Shown: positions 5,401 to 60,937 of the stretch, one piece after another
Numbering within the stretch: position 1 is the first letter of the stretch
Layout: each line of letters begins with the position of its first letter
Source: a virus
Lineage: Duplodnaviria; Caudoviricetes
Strand: one strand, 5' to 3'
IMG/VR virus record: IMGVR_UViG_3300014205_000003
Coordinates: 96,001 to 160,000 of that record
Length of the DNA stretch: 64,000 bases
Notes under the pieces: generated by a model
Databases searched by the model: none
What the model was told of the DNA's origin: nothing
The model's input: only the letters and a program-made list of their open reading frames with translations
Made by a program: the position numbers and the translations under genes

Positions 5401-6368
5401 GCAGTACAACAGAATGACTCTCCCTTTCGGGACAGTTTGTCTACCGCTCCGCACAAGCTACATGTCTGTGAAGAGTAAGCAGAGAAGACTTTCGTGTATC
5501 TAATGCCTTTTTCTTCACTGACTAGCTGAAGCCGACTCAAAACTTTTGAGTAGCTCCAGCGTTGCAACTTGTTCATGAATTGCTTGCTAATCTTGCCTTT
5601 AGAACCCTTCTTAACGTCTTTCAAATCTTCTACTACAAGCTCTTGAATATTGCGCAAGTCGAGAAGGTTTACCGATTGGTTGATCTTCTGATCCCGCTCT
5701 GTGAGAGCTTTCTTGAAGGCTTTAGACCCTTGTTTCTTCCTAGCTATTTTCTTGTAGACCTGTTCCATACCTACGTCGTAAATTTGCTTATCAGAAGAAG
5801 CAAGAAGTTTCTTATATCCGCAGTCAAGCCCTATAGAAGCTCCAGTAGCAGGGCTAGGAGATTCTTTCTCGAAAAAGATGTCAAGATACCACTTGCCATT
5901 TACTTTACGCAAGCAAGAAGACTTCTTAAGAGTCCAACCGTTCTGACTGAATTTAAGAAACTGCTTGTGACGTTTTGAAGGAATCTTAAGTACAATGTGG
6001 TTGCCAAGAGAGACCAATTTTATCCAAAAGTCAAAGGTGTTGTGTTCTGTATAGAATGTGCAGATTTTTTGATTTAGGCCAAACGTCTTTTGCGTGATCT
6101 TCGGCTTTGATGCTTTCTTCGTCTTGTTCTTTCTGGCTCTTGTTTTTTGAAGAATGCCAAAAGCTTGAACGAATAAACATCGACGTAAATCACAGCCTAG
6201 CCGAGTTTGAATCTTAGGAAGCTTGTCAAACTGTCTTGCGGAAGGATCGTTCCAAAAGTGATCTACGTAGAGCTGGAGAACCTTCAAAGCTTCGTTACCT
6301 ACAGTGTCGAGCTTCTGGAGCTTTCCAGTATTTGCAAAATTCAAGGACATTTGAACGGAACGAATCAC
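5301..6368 (-). CDS. tnpB: TnpB RNA-guided endonuclease
   Basis: RuvC motifs IGLDCG, VVEDL, DADFNAAKNI and Zn finger CSLCG...CTACG; all three catalytic acids intact. Confidence 0.92.
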   Translation of the reverse strand: MIRSVQMSLNFANTGKLQKLDTVGNEALKVLQLYVDHFWNDPSARQFDKLPKIQTRLGCDLRRCLFVQAFGILQKTRARKNKTKKASKPKITQKTFGLNQKICTFYTEHNTFDFWIKLVSLGNHIVLKIPSKRHKQFLKFSQNGWTLKKSSCLRKVNGKWYLDIFFEKESPSPATGASIGLDCGYKKLLASSDKQIYDVGMEQVYKKIARKKQGSKAFKKALTERDQKINQSVNLLDLRNIQELVVEDLKDVKKGSKGKISKQFMNKLQRWSYSKVLSRLQLVSEEKGIRYTKVFSAYSSQTCSLCGAVDKLSRKGESFCCTACGVTMDADFNAAKNILMRGAYSPPSVTNQLAP

Positions 6369-12335: not shown

Positions 12336-14897
12336 TGAAAATCAAACTTACCGTCCGTCAAAATCAGTTCCTAGTCTCTCCTTGGCCTCTCTGCCTGGAG
12401 AAGGCTTGTACAGTCACCCTTACTCAGAAAAAATTCTTCTACGACCCGAAAGATCCTCGTCCTATTACCTTCACGCACATCCCTATGTATACGAAGCTTT
12501 CTGAACAAGGAGGCATCGTCTACACAGGATTCCTTCAGAGGGTCCTTAAAGCCCTTGCAAAGGAAGAACACGAAGTGGAAGTCGAAGATCAGCGCATCAA
12601 GCCTTCTGGCACGGTTCCTGAGCTTCCTGAAGGCTCTGAAGGATATCGTGCAGGACAGCGAGAGTTCATTCACGCAATCCTCAACAATCACAGCGGTATT
12701 GGACAAGCTCCTCCAGCCTTTGGAAAGTCCTTTTGCATAGGACAGATCTGTAAGGTTCTGTGCAAGGAGAAGATCTTGGTCACTACGTCTAGGAAGACTG
12801 TGGTGACGATGCTCCTGCAACGTCTCAAAGCTACACTGCCTGACAGGCGAATCAAGCTTTGTGATGGTGCAAAGCCATTTGACGAAACTTGTGATATTGT
12901 AGTGTGCTCGTCAAAATCCCTCCACAAGATTCCTACAGAGTGGCCTCAAGTTCTTCTATTCGATGAAGTGCATGGAGCTGCTGGTCCTCAGGTCTGTCGC
13001 GTACTCGGAAATATGACAAATGTCCGTTTCTACGGTTTTAGCGCAACTCCTACTGGCAGAGGGGATAACGGAGACAAACTTGTAGAAGCTTTGTTTGGTC
13101 CTGTTATTTACAAGATGAACTATGAGCAAGCTTTGGCTAATGGTAATGTCACGCAGACACAAGTCCGTATGGTGCCTATCAAAGGTGCCAATCTCGAGTT
13201 CCACGACACTACTGCAATGAATCGGTATGGCTATTGGCGAAACACACAACGCAATAAGAAGATTGCAGAGGTTGTGGAAGCGTTGCAAGCTGAAGGCTTA
13301 GAAAAGATCCTGATCCTTGTAAACACTGCAGAGCATGCCTTCCATCTGCGTTTGTTCCTTCCTAAGTTTAAGATCGTACATGCTGGGCTCTCCTTGGAGA
13401 AGTTCAACGAGTTTAAGAAGAATGGGCTTCTGACGCCTACAGATTCACCAACTGTAGATGTAGATAAACTCGCCATTGAATTCAAGGAAGCCAAAAATCT
13501 GGGAATCATAAGCACGCCTAAGTGGCGTGAGGGTTTTCGCTGGAATGCCCTTCACAGTAGTAATACTGTGTCGAAACTCTCTTAACTGCTGGGAACTCTC
13601 TACACAGAGACAATCAGCAACGAACCTGTCAACACGTCTTGTGGGTGTAGCGCTTATATTAGTAGTGTGTCTAAACAACAACTACAGGGATAGCACTACA
13701 CATGTCTGACTACACAAACAACCGAGATCTCCTATTTCACCAAGTGAAGGTAGGAGATGTCATAAACAACCGAAAAATTCTTCGCATTGTTGGAGAACCA
13801 TTTCGACTGGTAAATGGAAAACACGCGCCTGTTCCTGAAGGGTGGTCTGGCTGTATATACGGCACGTATGAAGTAAATTGCATAAAATGCGACACCACAA
13901 GTATCGTTTGCGGATTACAAATGCAGACAATCAGCTGTAAAAATGGTCCGTGTAGCAAAAGCTTTAAAGACCTGACAAATATGCGTTTTGGTCAGTTAAC
14001 AATTTTAGCTTATGTACCACATTACAACAAAACAAAAGAACGAGGTGTGAGTTGGCTTACACGCTGCGACTGCGGGCGTGAAACTGTTGTATTTGGCAGG
14101 ATTCTTGTAGATCCAAAGCGTCCTAAAACGTGTTGCAACGTTTGTGCAAGAGCGTCTAAGTCACGAAAACGGAGACTTCCTGAGAGTCTTGCAGGATGGC
14201 GAGAATACTTCAGCAAGACAAAACGGGATTCTCATAAAAAACAAAGAGCTTTCGATTTGTCTTTTGAGGAGTTTAGACGTGTTGCAAGTTTAAACTGCGC
14301 TTACTGCGGAGCCGCCCCGTGTTTGATGTATCATCACACGGAAGTTGTGAGAAATGGGATAGACCGTGTGGATAGTAAACTTGGATACACGTCAACTAAT
14401 GTTGTTGCTTGTTGTAAGATCTGTAATAGAATGAAAATGGAGCTAGACTGCCAGACGTGGTTGGAGCATGTTAGAAAAATAGCAAAACACACAGAACAGA
14501 TTCGCTCAACGACTATCCCTAACGGGAGTACACCTAAGCAGGTGGAAACAGAGAGGGTCCTTCCACAAGAAGGACTTTGATATAGTCTGATCTGCATGGT
14601 GACATGCAGCTGCAGGTGGTGCTGCGGACAGTATCTAGCGCATACTGTTGAACACATATGGTTGATTTCCCAGATTTGTCAGTAGTTGTTCGTGCTGATG
14701 GACTTACGGGGTCAATTCCGTCCATTCAGATCGGTGGTCGCAGTGCTCGTGTATTTGAAAATAAGACTCAGGCTCTTGTAATTGACTTCGAGGATCACTT
14801 TGGTCCTGACATGATGGCCAGAAGCGCCAAGCGAGTCTTGAACTATAAGACTGAAGGTTGGCAAGTTGTAACATGGAACATAGGAGATGCTGAATGA
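12335..14897 (+). CDS. UvsW-like SF2 helicase, spliced join(12335..13534,14661..14897), 478 aa
   Basis: APPAFGKS, DEVH, SATP; splicing restores motif V WREG|VDFPDL followed by motif VI QIGGRSAR. Confidence 0.9.
13535..14660 (+). mobile_element. Group I intron in the helicase gene, carrying an endonuclease ORF
   Basis: 5' exon ends in U; P1 GAGGGU/GCCCUU; core AACTGCTGGGAA, AATCAGCA, CAACGACTA, GATATAGTC; terminal G at 14660; in-frame join. Confidence 0.92.
13702..14580 (+). CDS. Intron-encoded HNH-type homing endonuclease
   Basis: DLTNMRFGQL...WLTRCDCG N-terminal motif; CAYCG...NGIDRVDSKLGYTSTNVVACCKICNRMK nuclease domain; C-terminus overlaps the intron core. Confidence 0.85.
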   Translation: MSDYTNNRDLLFHQVKVGDVINNRKILRIVGEPFRLVNGKHAPVPEGWSGCIYGTYEVNCIKCDTTSIVCGLQMQTISCKNGPCSKSFKDLTNMRFGQLTILAYVPHYNKTKERGVSWLTRCDCGRETVVFGRILVDPKRPKTCCNVCARASKSRKRRLPESLAGWREYFSKTKRDSHKKQRAFDLSFEEFRRVASLNCAYCGAAPCLMYHHTEVVRNGIDRVDSKLGYTSTNVVACCKICNRMKMELDCQTWLEHVRKIAKHTEQIRSTTIPNGSTPKQVETERVLPQEGL

Positions 14898-46405: not shown

Positions 46406-47461
46406 TCAGTTTGTCACGGAAGGGGGACTATAGGCTCCCCTCTGTCGGATGTTGATGGCCGCATTGAAGTCTGCATCCATCTTCATTCCACACGCGGTAC
46501 AACAGAATGACTCTCCCTTTCGGGACAGTTTGTCTACCGCTCCGCACAAGCTACATGTCTGCGAAGTAAAGGCAGGATTAATCCTCGTAAGGGTTAGTCC
46601 TGCTTCTTCACAAACCATCTGAAGTTTGTCCAAAACTTTTGGATAGCTCCAGCGTTGTAACTTGTTGTTAAATTGCTTGCTAATCTCGCCTTTAGAACCC
46701 TTCTTCACATCCTTGAGATCTTCGACTACAAGTTCTTGAATGTTAGTAAGATCAATCAGCTTTACAGACTGATTGATCTTTTGGTCACGTTCCTTCAATG
46801 CTCTTTTAAATGCTTTAGATCCTTGTTTCTTCCTAGCGATTTTCTCATAGACATTTTCCATGCCTACGTCGTAGGTTTTCTGATCGGAAGAAGCAAGGAG
46901 TTTCTTGTATCCACAATCAAGGCCTAAGAATGTTCCCTTCGATGTACTGGGAGTATCTTTCTCGAAGAATACATCCAAGTACCACTTCCCATTGACTTTA
47001 CGTAAGCAAGAGGACTTCTTAAGAAGCCAGCCGTGCTGACTGAACTTGAGAAATTGCTTGTGCTTACATGAAGGGATCTTAAGATTTATCTTGTTTCCTA
47101 GACAAAAGAGTTTAATCCAGAAGTCGAAAGAATTCTGCTTAGTAGAGAAAGTACAGATAAGTTCCGTGAGATTAAAAGTTTTTTGTTTGAGTACAGGCTT
47201 AGATGCTTTCTTTACTTTGTTCTTTCGAGCTCGTAGTTTCTTAAGTACGTCAAAGGCTTGAATGAAAAGACATCTTTGAAGGCGAGCGGCGAGCCACGTT
47301 GGAATTGGAGGAAGTTGATCGAACTTTGTAGCAGAAGGATCTTTCCAGAAGTGCTCTACGTAGAGATTAAGTACTCTCAGGGCTTCCACACTGAAAGTAT
47401 CAAGCTTTTGGAGCTTCCCGGCGTTTGCAAAGTTCAACGACATTTGTACTCTACGAATCAC
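46406..47461 (-). CDS. tnpB: TnpB RNA-guided endonuclease (close paralog of 5301..6368)
   Basis: LGLDCG, VVEDL, DADFNAAINI, Zn finger. Confidence 0.92.
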   Translation of the reverse strand: MIRRVQMSLNFANAGKLQKLDTFSVEALRVLNLYVEHFWKDPSATKFDQLPPIPTWLAARLQRCLFIQAFDVLKKLRARKNKVKKASKPVLKQKTFNLTELICTFSTKQNSFDFWIKLFCLGNKINLKIPSCKHKQFLKFSQHGWLLKKSSCLRKVNGKWYLDVFFEKDTPSTSKGTFLGLDCGYKKLLASSDQKTYDVGMENVYEKIARKKQGSKAFKRALKERDQKINQSVKLIDLTNIQELVVEDLKDVKKGSKGEISKQFNNKLQRWSYPKVLDKLQMVCEEAGLTLTRINPAFTSQTCSLCGAVDKLSRKGESFCCTACGMKMDADFNAAINIRQRGAYSPPSVTN

Positions 47462-48450: not shown

Positions 48451-50715
48451 GTGAAAGACAAAACGATGGCTCCTAAGAACATCCCAGTCCTGACACCCGC
48501 AGAACTCTCCGACAAGATCTTTGAAGGAAAGTACAAACACTCTAAAGATACTAATCGGGACGATATGTTCCGACGTAATGCTAAAGCCGCAGCCGCTGTA
48601 CGGCAGCTAGAAGGTACTGCAGAGGAACTGGAAGAATCCTTCTTTCAACTGATGAAAAAGGAACTCTTCTTTCCAGCAGGTCGTATCCTATCGAACTTAG
48701 GTACTGGGCGGCAACAGGTTACAACATTTAACTGCGCAATTGCAAACACCATCCCGGATAGCATGGAAGGTATCTTTGACGTCTTGAAGATGGGTGCCTT
48801 GACACAGAAAGCCGGAGCCGGTATCGGCTATGACTTCTCTACGATTCGGCCAAAGAATCAACTGGTTAAAGGTGTAGAGAGCAAAGCGTCTGGTCCTATC
48901 AGCTTCATGAAAGTCTTTGACAGCGCTTGTCAGAGTATTATGAGTGCTGGCCTGAGACGTGGCGCAAACATCGCCATCCTTCGAATCGATCATCCAGACA
49001 TCGAAGAGTTTATCACAGCTAAGTCCTCTGCAGGTGTACTGGAGATGTTCAATCTCTCCTGCGGTTTAACTGACGAATTTTTAAAAGCTGTGGAAGAGAA
49101 CAAGACGTTCGATCTGAGGTTCGGAGGAGAAGTCTACAGCACAGTAAAAGCTCGAGACCTCTGGGACAAACTGATCAAGAACAATTACGACTATGCAGAA
49201 CCTGGAGTGCTCTTTCTTGATACCGTAAATCGAAATAATTCACTTTACTATTGTGAGACTATTTCCTGCTGTAATCCTTGTGGCGAAATAGTTGGACCTC
49301 CCTATGGCGTTTGTCTGCTCGGTTCGATGATTCTTCCCTCGTTCGTAAACAAATATAAAACGTTTGACTGTTCTAGGTTTTACAGTGCTGTAAGACTAGC
49401 TACCCATTTCCTCGACAATGTCATTGACATCTCTAAGTTCCCTATTAAGGAACAAGAGAAAGAGGCTAAGAACAAACGCCGAATGGGTCTCGGTGTTACA
49501 GGCTTTGCAGATGCTCTTATCAAGATGGAAATTCCTTACAATTCCCCAGAAGCCGTTAGATTTGCCTCGGAAGTAGCTAAACAATTGGCCAACGCTGCGT
49601 ACGGTGCTTCTTCAGATCTTGCTGGGAAGTTTGGTTCGTTTCCTGCATACGTCGCTGAGAAACATAAGGAGAGCGTTCCTTACAAAACCCTTGCGTTAGA
49701 GTTCCCTGATACTGCGAATAACATCGAGCGTAAAGGTCTTCGAAACAGTCACTTGATTAGTATCGCTCCTACAGGAACTATCTCGCTACTGGCCTCGAAC
49801 ATCTCTAGTGGAATTGAGCCTATCTTCGCTTACGACTACACTCGTAAATTTCGTACAGCTGATGGTGAAGAACTGTTCAAGGTCTACGACAAGGTGTACT
49901 ATGAGTGGCTTCAGGCTAATCCTGACAAGAAGCGTCCTGCGTACATGGTGTCGGTGGATGATCTGACTCCTGATGATCATTTGAATGTTCAAGCGGCGTT
50001 TCAGAAGTGGGTGTGCTCGTCAATCTCCAAGACGATCAACTGTCCTGCAGATATCAAGTACGATGAGTTTTCTAAGATCTATATGAAGGCATGGAAGATG
50101 TCGCTCAAGGGGGCAACGTGCTACCACCCCTCTGGTAAGTTGAAGGCTGTCTTGGTAAAAGACACTCCTGAGAAGCCTGTAGAAACTCTTCCTATTGTGT
50201 CTGACGCTGTTCCAGAACGCCCTGATCAGCTTACGGGTGTGACGTACAAGCTGAAAGACGGTCAAGGTGTGTCGTACTACATAACCATCAACGATCTCGT
50301 GGAGGGCTCCCAAACCAGGCCTTTCGAAATCTTCTGCAGTAGCAAGAACCTTGCTGCCGCTGCAACACTCGCTACGATGACTAGGCTCCTTTCCACCATC
50401 TTTAGGCGTGAGAAGGATATCTCATTCATTGTCAATGAGTTGTCGCAGATTTCAGATCCGTCTGGGGGCTATTGGAGTAATGGTGTGTTCTACTGCAGTC
50501 TCCAAGCACACATCGCCGCATGTATCGACGCTCACGTCCAGGCCCTCTCTAAGAAGGGTGTGTTCAAGGGTAAGCATGTGAAGGACAAGACAGTTACTCC
50601 AGAGTCTGAGAAGAAGGGTAAGGTAACAGATCCTTGTCCTCTGTGCGGCAAGCAATTGATCCGTAAGGAAAATTGTCTGGCTTGCTCGGAGTGTACGTGG
50701 TCCCGTTGCCAATAG
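48451..50715 (+). CDS. nrdJ: Class II (adenosylcobalamin-dependent) ribonucleotide reductase with C-terminal TSCPD-like and Zn-ribbon domains
   Basis: PAGRIL, FNC, RRGAN, AEPG, NPCGE, CLLGS, IAPTGT, SISKTIN; no adjacent beta subunit. Confidence 0.9.
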   Translation: MKDKTMAPKNIPVLTPAELSDKIFEGKYKHSKDTNRDDMFRRNAKAAAAVRQLEGTAEELEESFFQLMKKELFFPAGRILSNLGTGRQQVTTFNCAIANTIPDSMEGIFDVLKMGALTQKAGAGIGYDFSTIRPKNQLVKGVESKASGPISFMKVFDSACQSIMSAGLRRGANIAILRIDHPDIEEFITAKSSAGVLEMFNLSCGLTDEFLKAVEENKTFDLRFGGEVYSTVKARDLWDKLIKNNYDYAEPGVLFLDTVNRNNSLYYCETISCCNPCGEIVGPPYGVCLLGSMILPSFVNKYKTFDCSRFYSAVRLATHFLDNVIDISKFPIKEQEKEAKNKRRMGLGVTGFADALIKMEIPYNSPEAVRFASEVAKQLANAAYGASSDLAGKFGSFPAYVAEKHKESVPYKTLALEFPDTANNIERKGLRNSHLISIAPTGTISLLASNISSGIEPIFAYDYTRKFRTADGEELFKVYDKVYYEWLQANPDKKRPAYMVSVDDLTPDDHLNVQAAFQKWVCSSISKTINCPADIKYDEFSKIYMKAWKMSLKGATCYHPSGKLKAVLVKDTPEKPVETLPIVSDAVPERPDQLTGVTYKLKDGQGVSYYITINDLVEGSQTRPFEIFCSSKNLAAAATLATMTRLLSTIFRREKDISFIVNELSQISDPSGGYWSNGVFYCSLQAHIAACIDAHVQALSKKGVFKGKHVKDKTVTPESEKKGKVTDPCPLCGKQLIRKENCLACSECTWSRCQ

Positions 50716-50718
50716 TTC

Positions 50719-50967
50719 ATGAAGCAGTACAAACACTCTGAGTATTGTTCTTACGTTCTGCATCACCTTGCCTGTGATTGTGGTGCAGATCGCAGGACAT
50801 GGAAAGAGTGGTTAGCTAAGGGGCTGCATGTGAAGAAGGGCGAACACGCTGTAGAGACGACTACTACAGGTCAAGCTCTCTTTACACACAGTCAGGTTAC
50901 AAGCAATGAATCAACTATTCAGCGAGGTCGCTGGTGGTTGGATGATAGTGTAAATTGTCATTGGTAA
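50719..50967 (+). CDS. Hypothetical protein
   Basis: TWKEWLAKGLHVKKGEHA...LFTHSQV motif. Confidence 0.65.
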   Translation: MKQYKHSEYCSYVLHHLACDCGADRRTWKEWLAKGLHVKKGEHAVETTTTGQALFTHSQVTSNESTIQRGRWWLDDSVNCHW

Positions 50968-50974
50968 AGTTCTT

Positions 50975-51288
50975 CGTCAGCAGGGATCATATTGGCATCG
51001 AAGGGGTTGTGGTGTTTCGCTAAGAGCTTGCTGACGGTCGAGGTGCTCGAAATCTCTCTTAGCGAATTCCTTTCCAGGTGTGCCCCAGTTCTCCCGCACT
51101 CTTAAGAAACGATCCCAGGGAGAACAACTTACTATTTAGTCTTGTCAGAGGGTTGACCATTGGCGCGGAGGTCACGTGCGTGTTGTAGCAGATGTTCCTC
51201 TGACAGTGTGGTACGATTCGCTCTGCTACAGCTCCTAACAGATAGCCAAGACTCCTCCTACCTGTACCGTAACGTGCTTAGAGGAGTC
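50975..51288 (+). ncRNA. Tandem pair of structured, pseudoknotted RNAs (50975..51125 and 51143..51288), unassigned
   Basis: Each unit has two crossing 9-11 bp helices plus a terminal 8-bp hairpin; different sequence but the same topology; G-U pairs favour the + strand. Confidence 0.65.
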
Positions 51289-51322
51289 ACCTTTCTTTCC
51301 CTATCAGCAAATAAGGAATCTC

Positions 51323-51862
51323 ATGTCCGTTTCAAGTATGCCTGAGTACAAATCTCTCTTTGATCTATCTCAGCAGTCAATCTCCTCAAAGTGCACATCT
51401 GTGCACTCTCTCCCCACAACCTTCAAGAAAGTTCTCTGGGCTCCGCACAGCTGGAACCTTGACTTAGGTGGTGGTCAGTACGAAGATGCTTCTATCTATC
51501 TGCAGAAACGTTTTGTATCCAACTTTGTATATGATCCGTTTAACAGGTCGGATGAACACAACGAACGCATTCGAGCATACATCATAAGTAGTTCGTTTGA
51601 TACAGTAACATGTTGTAATGTTTTGAACGTTATTAAGGAAGCAAAGATTCGACATACAGTCATAGAACAGGCGTACAAAGCATTGAAGCTCGGAGGGGTA
51701 GCCTACTTTCAGATCTATGAGGGAGACCGCTCTCAGAGGCAAGGAAAGACTTCTAAGGGCTATCAGTTGAACTGGTGGACGTCTTCTTATGTATCAGAAA
51801 TCACTAAGGTCTTTCACGGACTATGTAATGAGTACGCTAATACTCTAGTAGTAAGGAAATAA
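51323..51862 (+). CDS. Class I SAM-dependent methyltransferase
   Basis: NLDLGGG, VYDPFNR, DTVTCCNVLNVI, AYFQIYEGD. Confidence 0.8.
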   Translation: MSVSSMPEYKSLFDLSQQSISSKCTSVHSLPTTFKKVLWAPHSWNLDLGGGQYEDASIYLQKRFVSNFVYDPFNRSDEHNERIRAYIISSSFDTVTCCNVLNVIKEAKIRHTVIEQAYKALKLGGVAYFQIYEGDRSQRQGKTSKGYQLNWWTSSYVSEITKVFHGLCNEYANTLVVRK

Positions 51863-51932
51863 CCTAGGTAGGTATTTTATCTTGTTGCTAATCCTATGCT
51901 ATATTAGTATTCAATAGAAAGGCTAGGTTATA

Positions 51933-52100
51933 ATGGAATACACATCCGTTAGTAAGGCCGCTAAGATGATGGGAGTTCATCCAGACTCAATACGCCGGTG
52001 GTTCGACGAAGGGAAACTTAAAGGATACTTGACTCCGTCAAATCAACGTAAGATCTCTGTTGAGTCAATTAAGGTTCTTACAGGAGAATCTCCTAAGTGA
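51933..52100 (+). CDS. 55-aa MerR/excisionase-type HTH protein
   Basis: 52 of 55 residues identical to 6365..6532; TGA overlaps the tnpB GTG. Confidence 0.85.
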   Translation: MEYTSVSKAAKMMGVHPDSIRRWFDEGKLKGYLTPSNQRKISVESIKVLTGESPK

Positions 52101-53410
52101 TAAGAACGACTCGTCACAAACTAACTGATAGTAACGCCCTGAAGCAACAAAGGTTACTTTATGTTTTGACTGAGAGTAAGAACGTTGCACAAACGTACTT
52201 AGACTATTTGTGGACGTATGGTTGTACTTGGCAAACTAAAGATAGTTTGGGCGCTGGTATCCTACACACCCTAGACATATCAAGGAATCTTTTTGAACAT
52301 CCGTCTATGCTGTCAAACGTAGATTTAGAAAACAGCATTCAGGGATTCTCATCGGCCTTATCGGCGCGTCTGAAGAAGTGTATACTTACTCAAGTCTTAG
52401 GGATAGTTGGAGCATCTATAGAGAAGCAGAAGAAGCGTTTGTGGCAGCTTAACAAAAGCATAACAGAAGGAAAGTCTTGCAAGCAACTGCTCAAGAAAAT
52501 CGGACAGAATGCTCCTGTTAAACCAGATCTTTCTAACTTCTCATTAGAACTAAACACACTTTGTGTTGACCTCCGACGTTTACAAAACTCGCCGTTCGAC
52601 TATTTTGTGCAACTTAAATGCTTGGGAAAAGGTATTCCTTCCATTCGTCTTCCCATTAAGTTGCACAGAGCTGATAGGAAGTTTCAATCCTGGAGAATGC
52701 TTACCAGTTTTCTGATTTCAGAGAACGAAATACAGATACGATATGAAAAAGAGACACCGCCAAAGCTTGAACAGGGCTCGGTAGTAGGTGCCGATCAAGG
52801 TTTGAAAACAACCATAACCTTCTCTACAGGCTCTATCACTCCAGCAACAGACCCTCACGGTCATTCCCTAGAAGACGTCACTCATAAATTGTCTAGACGA
52901 CGCAAAGGCTCCAAGGGCTTTAAAAGAGCTCAAGACCATCGAAAGAACTTAATCAACTTTCAGATCAAACAACTGAACTTAACTGGCATCAAACAAATCA
53001 ATCTAGAGAAGGTCTGGAACATTGGTTACAAGACTCGTAAAAGTCGATACTTGTCGCATTGGTGTAATACACTCATCCGAGACAGACTGATCCAAGCTGG
53101 AGAAGAACAAGGGGTCCTTGTGAAACTTCAGCCATCAGTCTACAGAAGTCAGAGATGCAGTGCATGTGGGTTGGTACGAAAAGCCAATCGAAAAGGAAAG
53201 GAGTACAAATGCCTTTGTGGCTTTCATCTAGATGCAGATCTGAATGCTAGTCTCAATCATGTAGTTGAACTCCCTGAGATTTCGTTTGACTTTCGTAAGT
53301 TGAATCTAAACAGAAAGGGTTTCTATTGGAAACCTGAAGGTCTGTTTGATTTAACTGGTAGGGAGTTTGCAGTCCCCTATTCCTCACAAGAAACTGACTC
53401 TAAGTTGTAA
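52097..53410 (+). CDS. tnpB: TnpB-family RNA-guided endonuclease (divergent)
   Basis: VVGADQG, INLEKV, SQRCSACG...CLCG, DADLNASLN. Confidence 0.88.
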   Translation: MIRTTRHKLTDSNALKQQRLLYVLTESKNVAQTYLDYLWTYGCTWQTKDSLGAGILHTLDISRNLFEHPSMLSNVDLENSIQGFSSALSARLKKCILTQVLGIVGASIEKQKKRLWQLNKSITEGKSCKQLLKKIGQNAPVKPDLSNFSLELNTLCVDLRRLQNSPFDYFVQLKCLGKGIPSIRLPIKLHRADRKFQSWRMLTSFLISENEIQIRYEKETPPKLEQGSVVGADQGLKTTITFSTGSITPATDPHGHSLEDVTHKLSRRRKGSKGFKRAQDHRKNLINFQIKQLNLTGIKQINLEKVWNIGYKTRKSRYLSHWCNTLIRDRLIQAGEEQGVLVKLQPSVYRSQRCSACGLVRKANRKGKEYKCLCGFHLDADLNASLNHVVELPEISFDFRKLNLNRKGFYWKPEGLFDLTGREFAVPYSSQETDSKL

Positions 53411-53430
53411 ATGCTTAGATTTCAGTAACT

Positions 53431-53709
53431 GTCAAAGCAGGAACTGATACTGTCACATGCTGCAACGTATTGAATGTGATAAAAGAGCCTGACGTGCGTC
53501 GAAAGGTCATAGAACAGGCCTACAAGGCTTTGAAGATGCGTGGGGTAGCGTACTTCCAGATCTACGAGGGAGACGTCTCCAGCAGGCCCTGCAAGACCAC
53601 CAAAGGTTTCCAGATGAACTGCAGAGCTAGTAGCTACATTCGCGAGTTCCATGACGTGTTTCATGGCTGTGTTAATCAATACTCAAATATTCTAGTAATG
53701 AGGAAATAA
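53431..53709 (+). pseudogene. Orphan 3' half of a diverged allele of the 51323..51862 methyltransferase
   Basis: VKAGTDTVTCCNVLNVIKE...IEQAYKALK...VAYFQIYEGD...NILVMRK* aligns with the C-terminal half of the intact gene; begins at the element right end. Confidence 0.88.
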
Positions 53710-53711
53710 GT

Positions 53712-54566
53712 ATGACAGTTGCAAAGATTTACCCAAACAACGATTCTGCTTGTCCTGTCTGTAAAGGTCCGACAGTCCTTACAGAACTTACATGTCGGCA
53801 CAAGAAAGCGCTCACATTTGTTCTAAGCTGTAAGAATCACAAGTATTGCTACGAGTGTTCTAGCTCGAGTGTCTCTACACTTGCTAGTGCGCTCTCAGCG
53901 ACATACAGCGCTATGAATACACCTCCTCGTATGCAGACTGGATTTCCTACGTGCCCTCGCTGTGGTAAACAGTTTATTGAGGTTACGCATGACAGCAACA
54001 ACTACGACTTCAAGTGTCCAGAGTGCAACTTGTGGAAGATGGCTCCTACATATGCAGAACTCGAACTGCAGTTGGAAGAGATAGACGCCGATTGTAAGGA
54101 TTACGACAAGTCTATGGGACGGGCTAACAACATACGAGTCCAGAACGTGGTGAAAGAGAACGAGGAGCGATTCAACAACATGCCAACGAATTCTACAGAA
54201 CTCTCCGACGAGGAGAAAGAGAAGCTCCTTAAGGAAATGAAAGAGACAGGTAAGGGAATCAAATTCGATCAGGAAAAGCTTAAGTACTCCCTCCTACCTT
54301 GGGATGCTGTTAAAGAGGTTGTGAAAGTACTGATGATTGGTGCACGCAAGTACTCAGCTTCAAATTGGGTAGTGGTTCCCGGAGCCTCTGGAGGCACTGG
54401 TCGATACGCTAACGCGGCTATGCGACACCTTGTTTCCTATATGTCAGGAGAGAAGAATGACCCAGAGACAAAACTGTCACATTTAGCGCATTGTGCGTGC
54501 TGCATTCTTTTTCTGCTTGCTTATGATCTTAGAGGCATTGTATCTAAACCAGAGGAATCCAAGTAA
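53712..54566 (+). CDS. Zn-ribbon + DUF5664-like dATP/dGTP diphosphohydrolase domain protein
   Basis: KFDQEK..YSLLP...GARKY...NW...AAMRHL...DPETKLSHLAH. Confidence 0.75.
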   Translation: MTVAKIYPNNDSACPVCKGPTVLTELTCRHKKALTFVLSCKNHKYCYECSSSSVSTLASALSATYSAMNTPPRMQTGFPTCPRCGKQFIEVTHDSNNYDFKCPECNLWKMAPTYAELELQLEEIDADCKDYDKSMGRANNIRVQNVVKENEERFNNMPTNSTELSDEEKEKLLKEMKETGKGIKFDQEKLKYSLLPWDAVKEVVKVLMIGARKYSASNWVVVPGASGGTGRYANAAMRHLVSYMSGEKNDPETKLSHLAHCACCILFLLAYDLRGIVSKPEESK

Positions 54567-58701: not shown

Positions 58702-60937
58702 ATGCTACTCAACGCGGCTCGTACTACTGTTTGGAACTGGGACAATGTCACTTCTTCACTCTGCCCTGACTGCGGCGAAAAGCTTATGGCTCGTCGCTGT
58801 GAAGACAAGATCTGGCACTGGGCTCATTACCCTCTCCCTAAAGGTGCAACCCCTCGTGCATGTCATGCAGAAGAGACTGCTTGGCGCTTGCAGTGGAAGT
58901 TTGCACAGATGTGCAATGATGGCTGGGAGATCGAGAAGCGTGTAGAGCTTGAAGGTAAGATTACTGTTTTGGATGCTTACAATGCTGAACAGAATCAAGT
59001 AACTATCTTCGTTCACAGCACTTCACCTAAGTCCCTCGAACGATTCGAACGTCTCAAGCGCAGTTCCTACAACTGCTACTGGATCAACTAAGGTCCCTTT
59101 GTCTGGTAACAGGCATTGAAAAGAAAGTGAATTGCTGGGACACCTAAAGTGCACATCTGTGCGCCATGGCAATCAGCAGCCGACCTCTTAATAGACCCTA
59201 GTGGCCTCTAAGAGAAGGTTCAACGACTAGTCCGTAAGGACGTAGGGTCAAGCGGCCCGAAGCACTCTCTCCTGAGCAATTAGGAGAATGATATAGCCTT
59301 TGCCACAGTGAAAATTGTGGGAGTCCTGATTAACCATCAGCAAACCGGCAGTACTTAGCGAGTACTGTTGAAAACAACTATACGAAGTAGAAATTTCGTT
59401 TTGTTTCTCAAGTAGTTTACAAATTCTGATTTGATGTATTATAATAATCCATATGCAGCGTTCACATAAAATTCGATTAGATCCTACAGTCAAGCAAGAA
59501 GTCGCAATGCGACAAGCTGCTGGAACTGCGAGATTTACTTGGAATTACGCGCTGGCTATGTGGAAAAAGCAATACGACGATTTTAAGCTAGGGCTGGCGA
59601 CTAAACCAGATGTCTACAGTATCTCCAGACGTTGGACACAAGAAAAACCAGATTGGGCTCGAGAAGTTGCATGCGGTCTTCAGAACCGTGCAATTATGAC
59701 TCTCGGAAAAGCTATGATCAGTTTTTGGAACGGGAAGACAAATTTCCCGAAATTCCATAAGAAGTCTGACAAGTCTTCTTTCTATGTGGCTAATAGTCAT
59801 GGTTATATCAAAGATGGCCGGATACACATTACGAATGTTGGAAAAGTAAAACTAGCAGAAGCTCCCCGTTTTGAGGGGCGAACGCTGTGTTATACTGTTT
59901 CTCATTCTGCAGGTAAATGGTTTGTGTCTGTTCAAGTAGAATTGACAGAACCTATTGTACCTAATCCGTCCTTGTCTGTAGTTGGTGTAGACGTCGGGAT
60001 TAAGAACATTGCAGTTGCAAGCGATGGCACTTCGTTGCCAAATCCTCATTTTCTTATCAAGCAACAACGACAGTTGAAATACTATCAACGTCAATTAGCG
60101 CGACAAGTAAAAGGATCAAATCGCCGCAATGCAACGAAAACCCGTATTGCAAAGATCCATCAGAAGATTGTAAATCAACGTCAGGACTGTGTCCACAAGT
60201 TCACTACAGCTCTTGCCAAAAACCACGGCACTGCAGTGATCGAAACACTGGACATCGAGAGTATGAAAAGTTCAGACAAGGTCTGGATGAATCGTGCTCT
60301 CCAAGACACCTGCATGCGCGAGGTCCACAGGCAACTGGAGTACAAGATGAGGGAGCTCGTAAAAGCTCCTAAGTTCTTCCCCAGCTCCAAGACCTGCTCG
60401 TCATGTGGAGATGTCAAAGAGTCCTTGCCACCCTCTATTAGGGTGTACAGATGTCAGTGTGGCTTAGAGATCGACCGCGATCTCAACGCTGCACTGAACT
60501 TGAGAAACAGGAGTTGGGTAACAACTTCTACATGCGTGGAGACCTCTAAAGGGTCTACGAAGCGCAAAACGAAACTCGTTGCCGCTAGGTAACGAACCTC
60601 GTATTACAGCTATGACGGAAAGGCCCTTGGCTCTGCTCGTACACGTCGATGCATGTGGGATGATACGTTGAAGAAGTACATGTTGTATCAACGCATGTTG
60701 AAGCCTGCTGCTATGGGTCTCTACAAGGCTACAGGAGGCGCTGTACATCGCTATGAGGGTCTGTACCACTGTAAGGACGTGAATCCCTATTATGGCTATG
60801 GAAAGGTTCGTGACATTACTCGTTGGACAGCGTTGGAAGGTCCGTTGACGCAGAAGGCTTTGGAGAACTTCCACAGTGCTCTGAGTCTGATGAACTTCCT
60901 TCGCAGGGATGATGAAAAGCCGCAGGTGAGTCCTTGA
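58702..60937 (+). CDS. CoiA-like putative nuclease, spliced join(58702..59084,60610..60937), 236 aa
   Basis: CPDCG...WHWAH...C..EETAW N-terminus; splicing gives YNCYWI|YDGKALGS in frame. Confidence 0.75.
59085..60609 (+). mobile_element. Group I intron carrying tnpB (IStron-like, no tnpA)
   Basis: P1 GGAU|C/GGUCC with U-G at the splice site; core GAATTGCTGGGA, AATCAGCAG, CAACGACTA, GATATAGCC; terminal G 60609; in-frame exon join. Confidence 0.88.
59453..60592 (+). CDS. tnpB: TnpB (IS605 OrfB type with N-terminal HTH)
   Basis: HKIRLDP...AGTARFTWN; VGVDVG, VIETL, SSKTCSSCG, DRDLNAALNL. Confidence 0.93.
   Translation: MQRSHKIRLDPTVKQEVAMRQAAGTARFTWNYALAMWKKQYDDFKLGLATKPDVYSISRRWTQEKPDWAREVACGLQNRAIMTLGKAMISFWNGKTNFPKFHKKSDKSSFYVANSHGYIKDGRIHITNVGKVKLAEAPRFEGRTLCYTVSHSAGKWFVSVQVELTEPIVPNPSLSVVGVDVGIKNIAVASDGTSLPNPHFLIKQQRQLKYYQRQLARQVKGSNRRNATKTRIAKIHQKIVNQRQDCVHKFTTALAKNHGTAVIETLDIESMKSSDKVWMNRALQDTCMREVHRQLEYKMRELVKAPKFFPSSKTCSSCGDVKESLPPSIRVYRCQCGLEIDRDLNAALNLRNRSWVTTSTCVETSKGSTKRKTKLVAAR

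Follow-up and report, generated by a model that had tools for sequence, protein, structure and literature searches.

Tandem double-pseudoknot RNA folds lying between ribonucleotide reductase and methyltransferase genes point to a new and very rare phage RNA family

What kind of element occupies a phage intergenic gap of 355 nt (50968-51322) that contains no credible gene? We examined this gap within the window, the whole 64,000-nucleotide stretch analysed, which covers positions 96001-160000 of a virus record that is 188,069 bp long and carries direct terminal repeats. Nearly all genes of the window lie on the + strand, and so do all neighbours of the gap:

48451-50715, +, upstream: nrdJ, B12-dependent ribonucleotide reductase
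50719-50967, +, upstream, after nrdJ: ORF82, a small open reading frame of 82 codons
51323-51862, +, downstream: MTase, a class I SAM-dependent methyltransferase of 179 aa

We found that the gap holds two tandem copies of a ~150-nt RNA fold, each with four helices and two pseudoknots. The six stems on which the original prediction was built are all present where it had placed them. Together with the second pseudoknot (PK2), the strands of the two units are:

50974-50984, +: unit 1, P1 5' arm; pairs with 51027-51037 in 11 pairs, including 2 G-U (duplex -16.8 kcal/mol)
51003-51010, +: unit 1, PK2 5' strand in L1, GGGGUUGU; pairs with 51109-51116
51016-51026, +: unit 1, P2 5' arm; pairs with 51056-51066 in 11 Watson-Crick pairs and directly abuts the P1 3' arm
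51027-51037, +: unit 1, P1 3' arm
51056-51066, +: unit 1, P2 3' arm
51088-51125, +: unit 1, P3 hairpin; arms 51088-95/51118-25, 8 bp, 22-nt loop, with 51109-51116 as PK2 3' strand
51142-51152, +: unit 2, P1 5' arm; pairs with 51196-51206 in 9 Watson-Crick and 2 terminal G-U pairs
51170-51177, +: unit 2, PK2 5' strand in L1, GGUCACGU, within the motif GGTCACGTGC; pairs with 51272-51279
51182-51192, +: unit 2, P2 5' arm; pairs with 51222-51232
51196-51206, +: unit 2, P1 3' arm
51222-51232, +: unit 2, P2 3' arm
51250-51288, +: unit 2, P3 hairpin; arms 51250-57/51281-88, 8 bp, 23-nt loop, with 51272-51279 as PK2 3' strand

In each unit the strands run in the order P1, PK2, P2, P1', P2', P3, PK2', P3', and the arm-to-arm spacings in units 1 and 2 are 46 and 45 nt for P1, 29 and 29 nt for P2, and 22 and 23 nt for P3. 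The P1 loop contains the 5' arm of P2, which sits right beside the P1 3' arm at a distance of 0 or 3 nt, so that P1 and P2 cross; with only 0-3 nt between their arms, the two can stack into a helix of ~22 bp. Five pairs are G-U (50974-51037, 50983-51028, 51142-51206, 51152-51196 and 51183-51231) and become A-C mismatches if the other strand is read, which fits transcription along with the surrounding + strand genes. P1 of unit 1 starts 6-7 nt past the ORF82 stop codon.

Architecture and a few short motifs are all that units 1 and 2 share. GTCAG/CTGAC, ATTGGC and GRAGG, reported earlier as common to the two, do occur in both, and the second and third stems, described as different in sequence, indeed have arms that differ completely between the copies. 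Aligned locally, the two score 18, vs 15.8 +/- 2 in shuffles, so that overall they are not significantly alike. By eye, GRAGG can also pair with pyrimidines 3' of P2, and ATTGGC with GCC(AA); we do not claim these extra pairings of 3-5 bp because they are short and not all kept in the related phage described below. A descriptor of the three-stem arrangement, with generous spacing and Watson-Crick stems of at least 7/7/7 bp, matched only the two adjacent unit sites on either strand of the whole 188-kb genome, and matched nothing in five dinucleotide-preserving shuffles of that genome.

A protein search with nrdJ identified a phage relative, the 6-kb Logan contig L112, whose nrdJ is 76% identical. 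Its layout is nrdJ, a 182-nt gap with one unit, and an MTase homolog, without ORF82. The ~420 nt comprising ORF82 and unit 1 (50719-51141) are present here and absent in L112 (compare 5669-5676 there), reflecting an insertion or a deletion. The helices of the L112 unit, and the window tail that shares a stretch with L112, are:

L112 5677-89/5733-45: P1, 13 bp (vs 11 in the window units)
L112 5722-32/5757-67: P2, 11 bp; its 5' arm also abuts the P1 3' arm
L112 5783-90/5814-21: P3, 8 bp, 23-nt loop
L112 5709-16/5805-12: PK2
Window 51289-51322, +: 34-nt tail from the end of unit 2 to the MTase ATG, with a GCAAnTAArGAA stretch common to L112

All three L112 helices P1-P3 are unlike those of both window units in sequence. 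Since a copy at the same place has entirely different helix sequences, we regard the fold as real. The original prediction had claimed a genuine ~150-nt fold, present twice, and had proposed a search for covarying homologs; the syntenic L112 homolog, with fully compensated stems at the same nrdJ-MTase position, bears the claim out. P1 of L112 starts 8 nt past the nrdJ stop codon, and the last helix lies 34 nt (unit 2) or 29 nt (L112) from the MTase ATG, the stretch before the ATG being partly common. Two loop motifs, GGTCACGTGC in L1 and TACCGTAACGTG in the P3 loop, are identical in unit 2 and L112 (motifs of 10 and 12 nt), and unit 1 has neither. The shared motif sits in different reading frames of the local small open reading frames and yields no conserved peptide, so we consider it non-coding.

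Support for the fold comes from three sequences (units 1 and 2 and the L112 unit) from two phages. Derived solely from unit 2 and given just the pairs of P2 and P3, a covariance model recovered both other copies, with 50.7 bits for the L112 unit (E 7e-15) and 17.4 bits for unit 1 (E 8e-5); after these the best match stood at E 0.39. Run over the complete genome and over five IMG/VR records related through nrdJ, it found no further copies. Pairs were counted on the model-based alignment (A6) because MAFFT alignments of the units were structurally inconsistent. P2 and P3 together form standard pairs in 54/54 cells, and 15 of their 18 pairs have changed on both sides. None of 500 shuffles reached these values, and sliding the partners by 1-3 columns left 33-44% of cells paired. 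P1 has no single register in this alignment and was counted by script instead, which found every position paired in all three sequences, with a conserved outer G-U-C/G-A-C and a variable inner part.

PK2 joins the 3' part of L1 with the eight bases preceding the last A of the P3 loop. Its register is the same in all three sequences, 4-5 nt ahead of the P2 5' arm and with a single A left between it and the P3 3' arm, and alignment columns 30-37 pair with 137-144 in 23/24 cells, with 3 pairs changed on both sides. The original prediction had spoken of multiple pseudoknots. The second pseudoknot is supported, with a partner in unit 1 other than the one proposed: the loop GAUCCC had been assigned to GGGATC at 50983-88, and its conserved-register partner is 51003-10 instead. 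The P3-loop complementarities listed at the time all exist, but they are 4-6 nt long, as expected by chance, and only ACGTG/CACGT lies within the conserved-register PK2; L112 has lost the other listed loop (L3) pairings. Among the unpaired bases, few are the same in all three sequences; the invariant bases include GUC...GAC-R-GU at the base of P1, and G-AACG plus the final A in the P3 loop. The element is a double-pseudoknot fold, conserved through compensatory changes and found at a conserved position.

No described family accounted for this fold in our searches. The original prediction had recognised no tRNA, tmRNA, riboswitch or known small ribozyme here, and Rfam and ARAGORN agree: no Rfam 15 family occurs in the window at gathering thresholds, the sole match over 50800-51450 at E up to 10 is a chance lncRNA on the other strand, and ARAGORN finds no tRNA or tmRNA in the whole window. 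A blastn search against 50,697 phage records gave no match. Scans for the pattern GTCAG..ATTGGC..GARG..CTGAC returned 8 matches in IMG/VR, 47 in JGI metagenomes and 39 in GTDB genomes, all of them chance; most are coding (NusA KH domains and HEAT repeats, for example), and none has P2 or P3. A pattern drawn from the motifs common to unit 2 and L112 found nothing in IMG/VR. MTase-family homologs elsewhere have no leader of this kind: either the preceding gene runs right up to the MTase, or the MTase domain forms part of a large fusion protein. A three-stem match beside an MTase homolog in two further contigs (L020/L021) was rejected as AT-rich low-complexity sequence. Judged from sequence, the tandem pair and the L112 copy form a new and very rare family of pseudoknotted phage intercistronic RNA. 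That the fold is something more unusual is a moderate possibility.

The predicted MTase structure (pLDDT 91) resembles only class I methyltransferases of a generic kind (Trm9, METTL6 and small-molecule enzymes among them), and therefore offers no clue to the role of the RNA. ORF82 found no homolog but itself in a search of 5.8 billion proteins and none in IMG/VR, with weak matches only to ArdC-N and small PHROG families. On the 3' side the order is MTase, a helix-turn-helix (HTH) gene and tnpB (52097-53410, +). The HTH gene preceding this tnpB encodes 55 aa of the MerR/excisionase type. The window contains three tnpB genes, two of which lie less than 6 kb apart on opposite strands (46406-47461, -, and 52097-53410, +). 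Directly 3' of the tnpB cassette, at 53431-53706, is the orphan 3' half of a second MTase allele, 64% identical to MTase residues 83-174 as numbered in the 174-aa gene-caller form P0001, which starts 5 codons into the 51323 open reading frame. No matching 5' half was found in 50700-53800, and the idea that the RNA region is itself a decayed MTase 5' half was rejected, no such remnant being present. Further along, the protein at 53712-54566 has a dATP/dGTP diphosphohydrolase N-terminal domain and adjoins a DNA ligase gene, which hints at a modified-nucleotide pathway in the phage.

A separate repeated motif, AAGTGCACATCTGTGCG, mostly with A before it and a run of T after it, occurs in 12 copies in the genome: at 51388-51406 and 59146-59163 in the window and at ten places elsewhere. 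It is able to form a 6-bp hairpin with a 4-nt loop. Ribosome-binding sites lie just downstream of most copies, and one copy falls within a group I-like intron match. Another sits inside the 5' part of the MTase open reading frame, and L112 keeps this copy almost base for base (5869-5887), while the surrounding MTase protein is, by eye, only ~55-60% identical to its L112 homolog. AAGTGCACATCTGTGCG might serve the phage as a promoter, a terminator or a signal for processing.

As to function, we tentatively favour an element that acts in cis on the nrdJ-MTase polycistronic transcript. We rank this role first because the place between the upstream stop and the MTase ATG is kept, P1 starting 6-8 nt past the stop and the last helix ending 29-34 nt before the ATG in the two phages, and because the pre-ATG stretch is partly shared. 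Transcription, cis action and function of the element are what we infer. Each unit would be transcribed from the + strand, within the polycistronic message, as a four-helix RNA of ~150 nt. In it P1 (11 bp) and P2 (11 bp) cross as an H-type pseudoknot, P3 (8 bp) with its loop of 22-23 nt follows, and eight bases of that loop pair back to the 3' part of L1, so that PK2 closes the molecule as a double pseudoknot. The units could then set the processing, stability (by nuclease protection) or translation of the MTase message, and a ribosome that reaches the upstream stop would unwind P1, possibly coupling MTase control to termination there. Several findings weigh against a cis role, however: neither a promoter-like nor a canonical terminator-like site flanks the RNA region, other phages of the MTase family have no leader, no consistent pairing between the units and the MTase ribosome-binding site was found, and the fold is drawn from only three sequences in two phages.

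The ribozyme and the decoy named in the original prediction, and a leader sensing SAM, are guesses. Instead of acting in cis, the units might be stable stand-alone RNAs, perhaps two paralogs, cut from the operon transcript and acting in trans as a shape-based decoy or scaffold for a host or phage protein, a reading that ranks second and is possible but doubtful. The stacked P1-P2 helix of ~22 bp would then mimic double-stranded RNA, by analogy with small RNAs that viruses make in pairs, adenovirus VA RNA I/II for example. Helix lengths are fixed (11, 11 and 8 bp) and helix sequences free, and the compact two-pseudoknot fold has few invariant unpaired bases, a combination that fits shape recognition and counts against a shared small-molecule pocket. 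The divergence of the tandem copies, and an MTase family that does not generally need the element, also speak for action in trans. Against it stand the absence of a promoter or terminator of the units' own, the lack of any complementary target of at least 11 nt elsewhere in the genome, and a conserved position relative to the MTase start codon. We think it unlikely that the units represent a new class of catalytic or sensing RNA, whether self-cleaving ribozyme, riboswitch or exoribonuclease-blocking knot, that would cut or protect the polycistronic message with PK2 as its active or binding core. A new self-cleaving ribozyme or RNA-processing element in particular, cutting the transcript between nrdJ/ORF82 and MTase, seems distinctly unlikely: tandem copies are common among phage ribozymes, and the double pseudoknot, the intergenic phage setting, the repeated units and the few invariant positions of the P1 base and the P3 loop would all suit one, but Rfam has no ribozyme family that matches even at E up to 10, the units have long, perfect helices, units 1 and 2 agree at few unpaired bases, and the helix order is unlike the HDV-like order. 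Some riboswitches are known in tandem, and a tandem riboswitch sensing SAM/SAH, a nucleotide or cobalamin and controlling the MTase would suit the SAM-dependent enzyme downstream, the B12-dependent reductase upstream and the identical 10- and 12-nt loop motifs of unit 2 and L112. We nonetheless regard it as improbable. Unit 1 has neither of those motifs, and ATTGGC and GTCAG are not conserved in L112, which weakens the idea of a ligand pocket common to the copies. Nothing like an expression platform can be seen, there being no terminator after P3 and no conserved masking of the ribosome-binding site, no Rfam riboswitch matches, and the leader is absent elsewhere in the MTase family.

The remaining explanations look beyond the RNA as such or to the gene before it. 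A single-stranded DNA element (a recombination, transposition or replication site), or duplex protein-binding repeats, linked to the TnpB cassette would agree with the cassette and broken MTase copy lying 0.6-2.4 kb downstream and with the insertion or deletion of ORF82 and unit 1 relative to L112. Such an element is very improbable. Transposon ends are not known to contain crossing helices or a pairing such as PK2, neither unit resembles the 3' end of any of the three resident tnpB genes, base composition and GC skew in the region are unremarkable, and the G-U pairs favour a transcribed strand; a sequence-specific DNA-binding protein is unlikely because the arm sequences differ completely between the copies. 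Least probable of all is a recoding signal, in which a pseudoknot 6-8 nt past the stop would drive readthrough or frameshifting of the upstream gene. P1 does start 6-7 nt past the ORF82 stop and 8 nt past the L112 nrdJ stop, and beyond its stop ORF82 could be read on through another 45 codons; despite this spacing, recoding is unlikely because the L112 nrdJ frame closes after 5 codons. Nor, by reading, does an X XXY YYZ slippery heptamer stand just before the ORF82 or L112 nrdJ stop, and no open reading frame precedes unit 2.

Complex RNA folds with compensatory changes in every helix that match no described family are uncommon, and such folds have earlier proved to be ribozymes, riboswitches or protein decoys. 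At ~150 nt each unit is small enough for direct bench testing, and the four helices, with a handful of invariant bases, can already be defined from two diverged natural copies and one ortholog. The pair also marks a variable spot beside cassettes for an RNA-guided nuclease (TnpB), in a phage with almost no sequenced relatives. Its present value is limited by its having been found in only two phage genomes.

Several known systems resemble the units in part. The type III antitoxin ToxI consists of near-identical repeats of ~36-45 nt with an endoribonuclease toxin downstream, and is not matched here: the units are ~168 nt apart and not significantly alike, and the downstream gene is a class I methyltransferase. 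The omega RNA (reRNA) of TnpB is, like the units, a structured RNA of ~150 nt with a pseudoknot, but the units lie 0.8 kb 5' of the nearest tnpB (52097-53410) with the MTase between, not at a tnpB 3' end, they are unlike the 3' regions of the three resident tnpB genes, where omega RNAs would be expected, and L112 keeps its unit in the nrdJ-MTase gap.

The core of a group I intron (P3-P7 pseudoknot, P8, P9) has the same order as the units, 5' A, 5' B, 3' A, 3' B and a hairpin. Known group I introns are ~200 nt or more, longer than a unit of ~150 nt, and the Rfam model Intron_gpI has no match at the units at E up to 10. Unlike such an intron, the units have an L1 of 29-32 nt that looks too short for a P4-P6 domain, and a perfect 11-bp P2 without a bulged G-binding site. 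Neither do they interrupt a gene: ORF82 has its own stop and the MTase its own ATG, the MTase aligns to free-standing homologs from residue 3, and the L112 unit sits between two complete gene ends. Elsewhere in the same genome, Rfam reports group I matches below the 50-bit gathering threshold at 59075-59320 (44.4 bits, E 5e-8), just upstream of a third tnpB-sized open reading frame (59453-60592), and at 14314-14609 (24.5 bits, E 0.04).

Compact double-pseudoknot RNAs such as the HDV-like and glmS ribozymes and the SAM-II/SAM-V and preQ1-III riboswitches are similar in having two pseudoknots, an intergenic position and tandem copies. The units differ from these in having no Rfam match, long helices and a small invariant core, and from the HDV-like fold in strand order. 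H-type pseudoknots also occur in phage and bacterial mRNA leaders, as in the T4 gene 32 leader and ribosomal-protein operators. With these the units have in common crossing helices, an intercistronic or leader position near a start codon, and covarying stems. They bear no known sequence relationship to these leaders, and differ further in that their helices are much longer (11 + 11 bp) and are joined by a third hairpin and a second pseudoknot.
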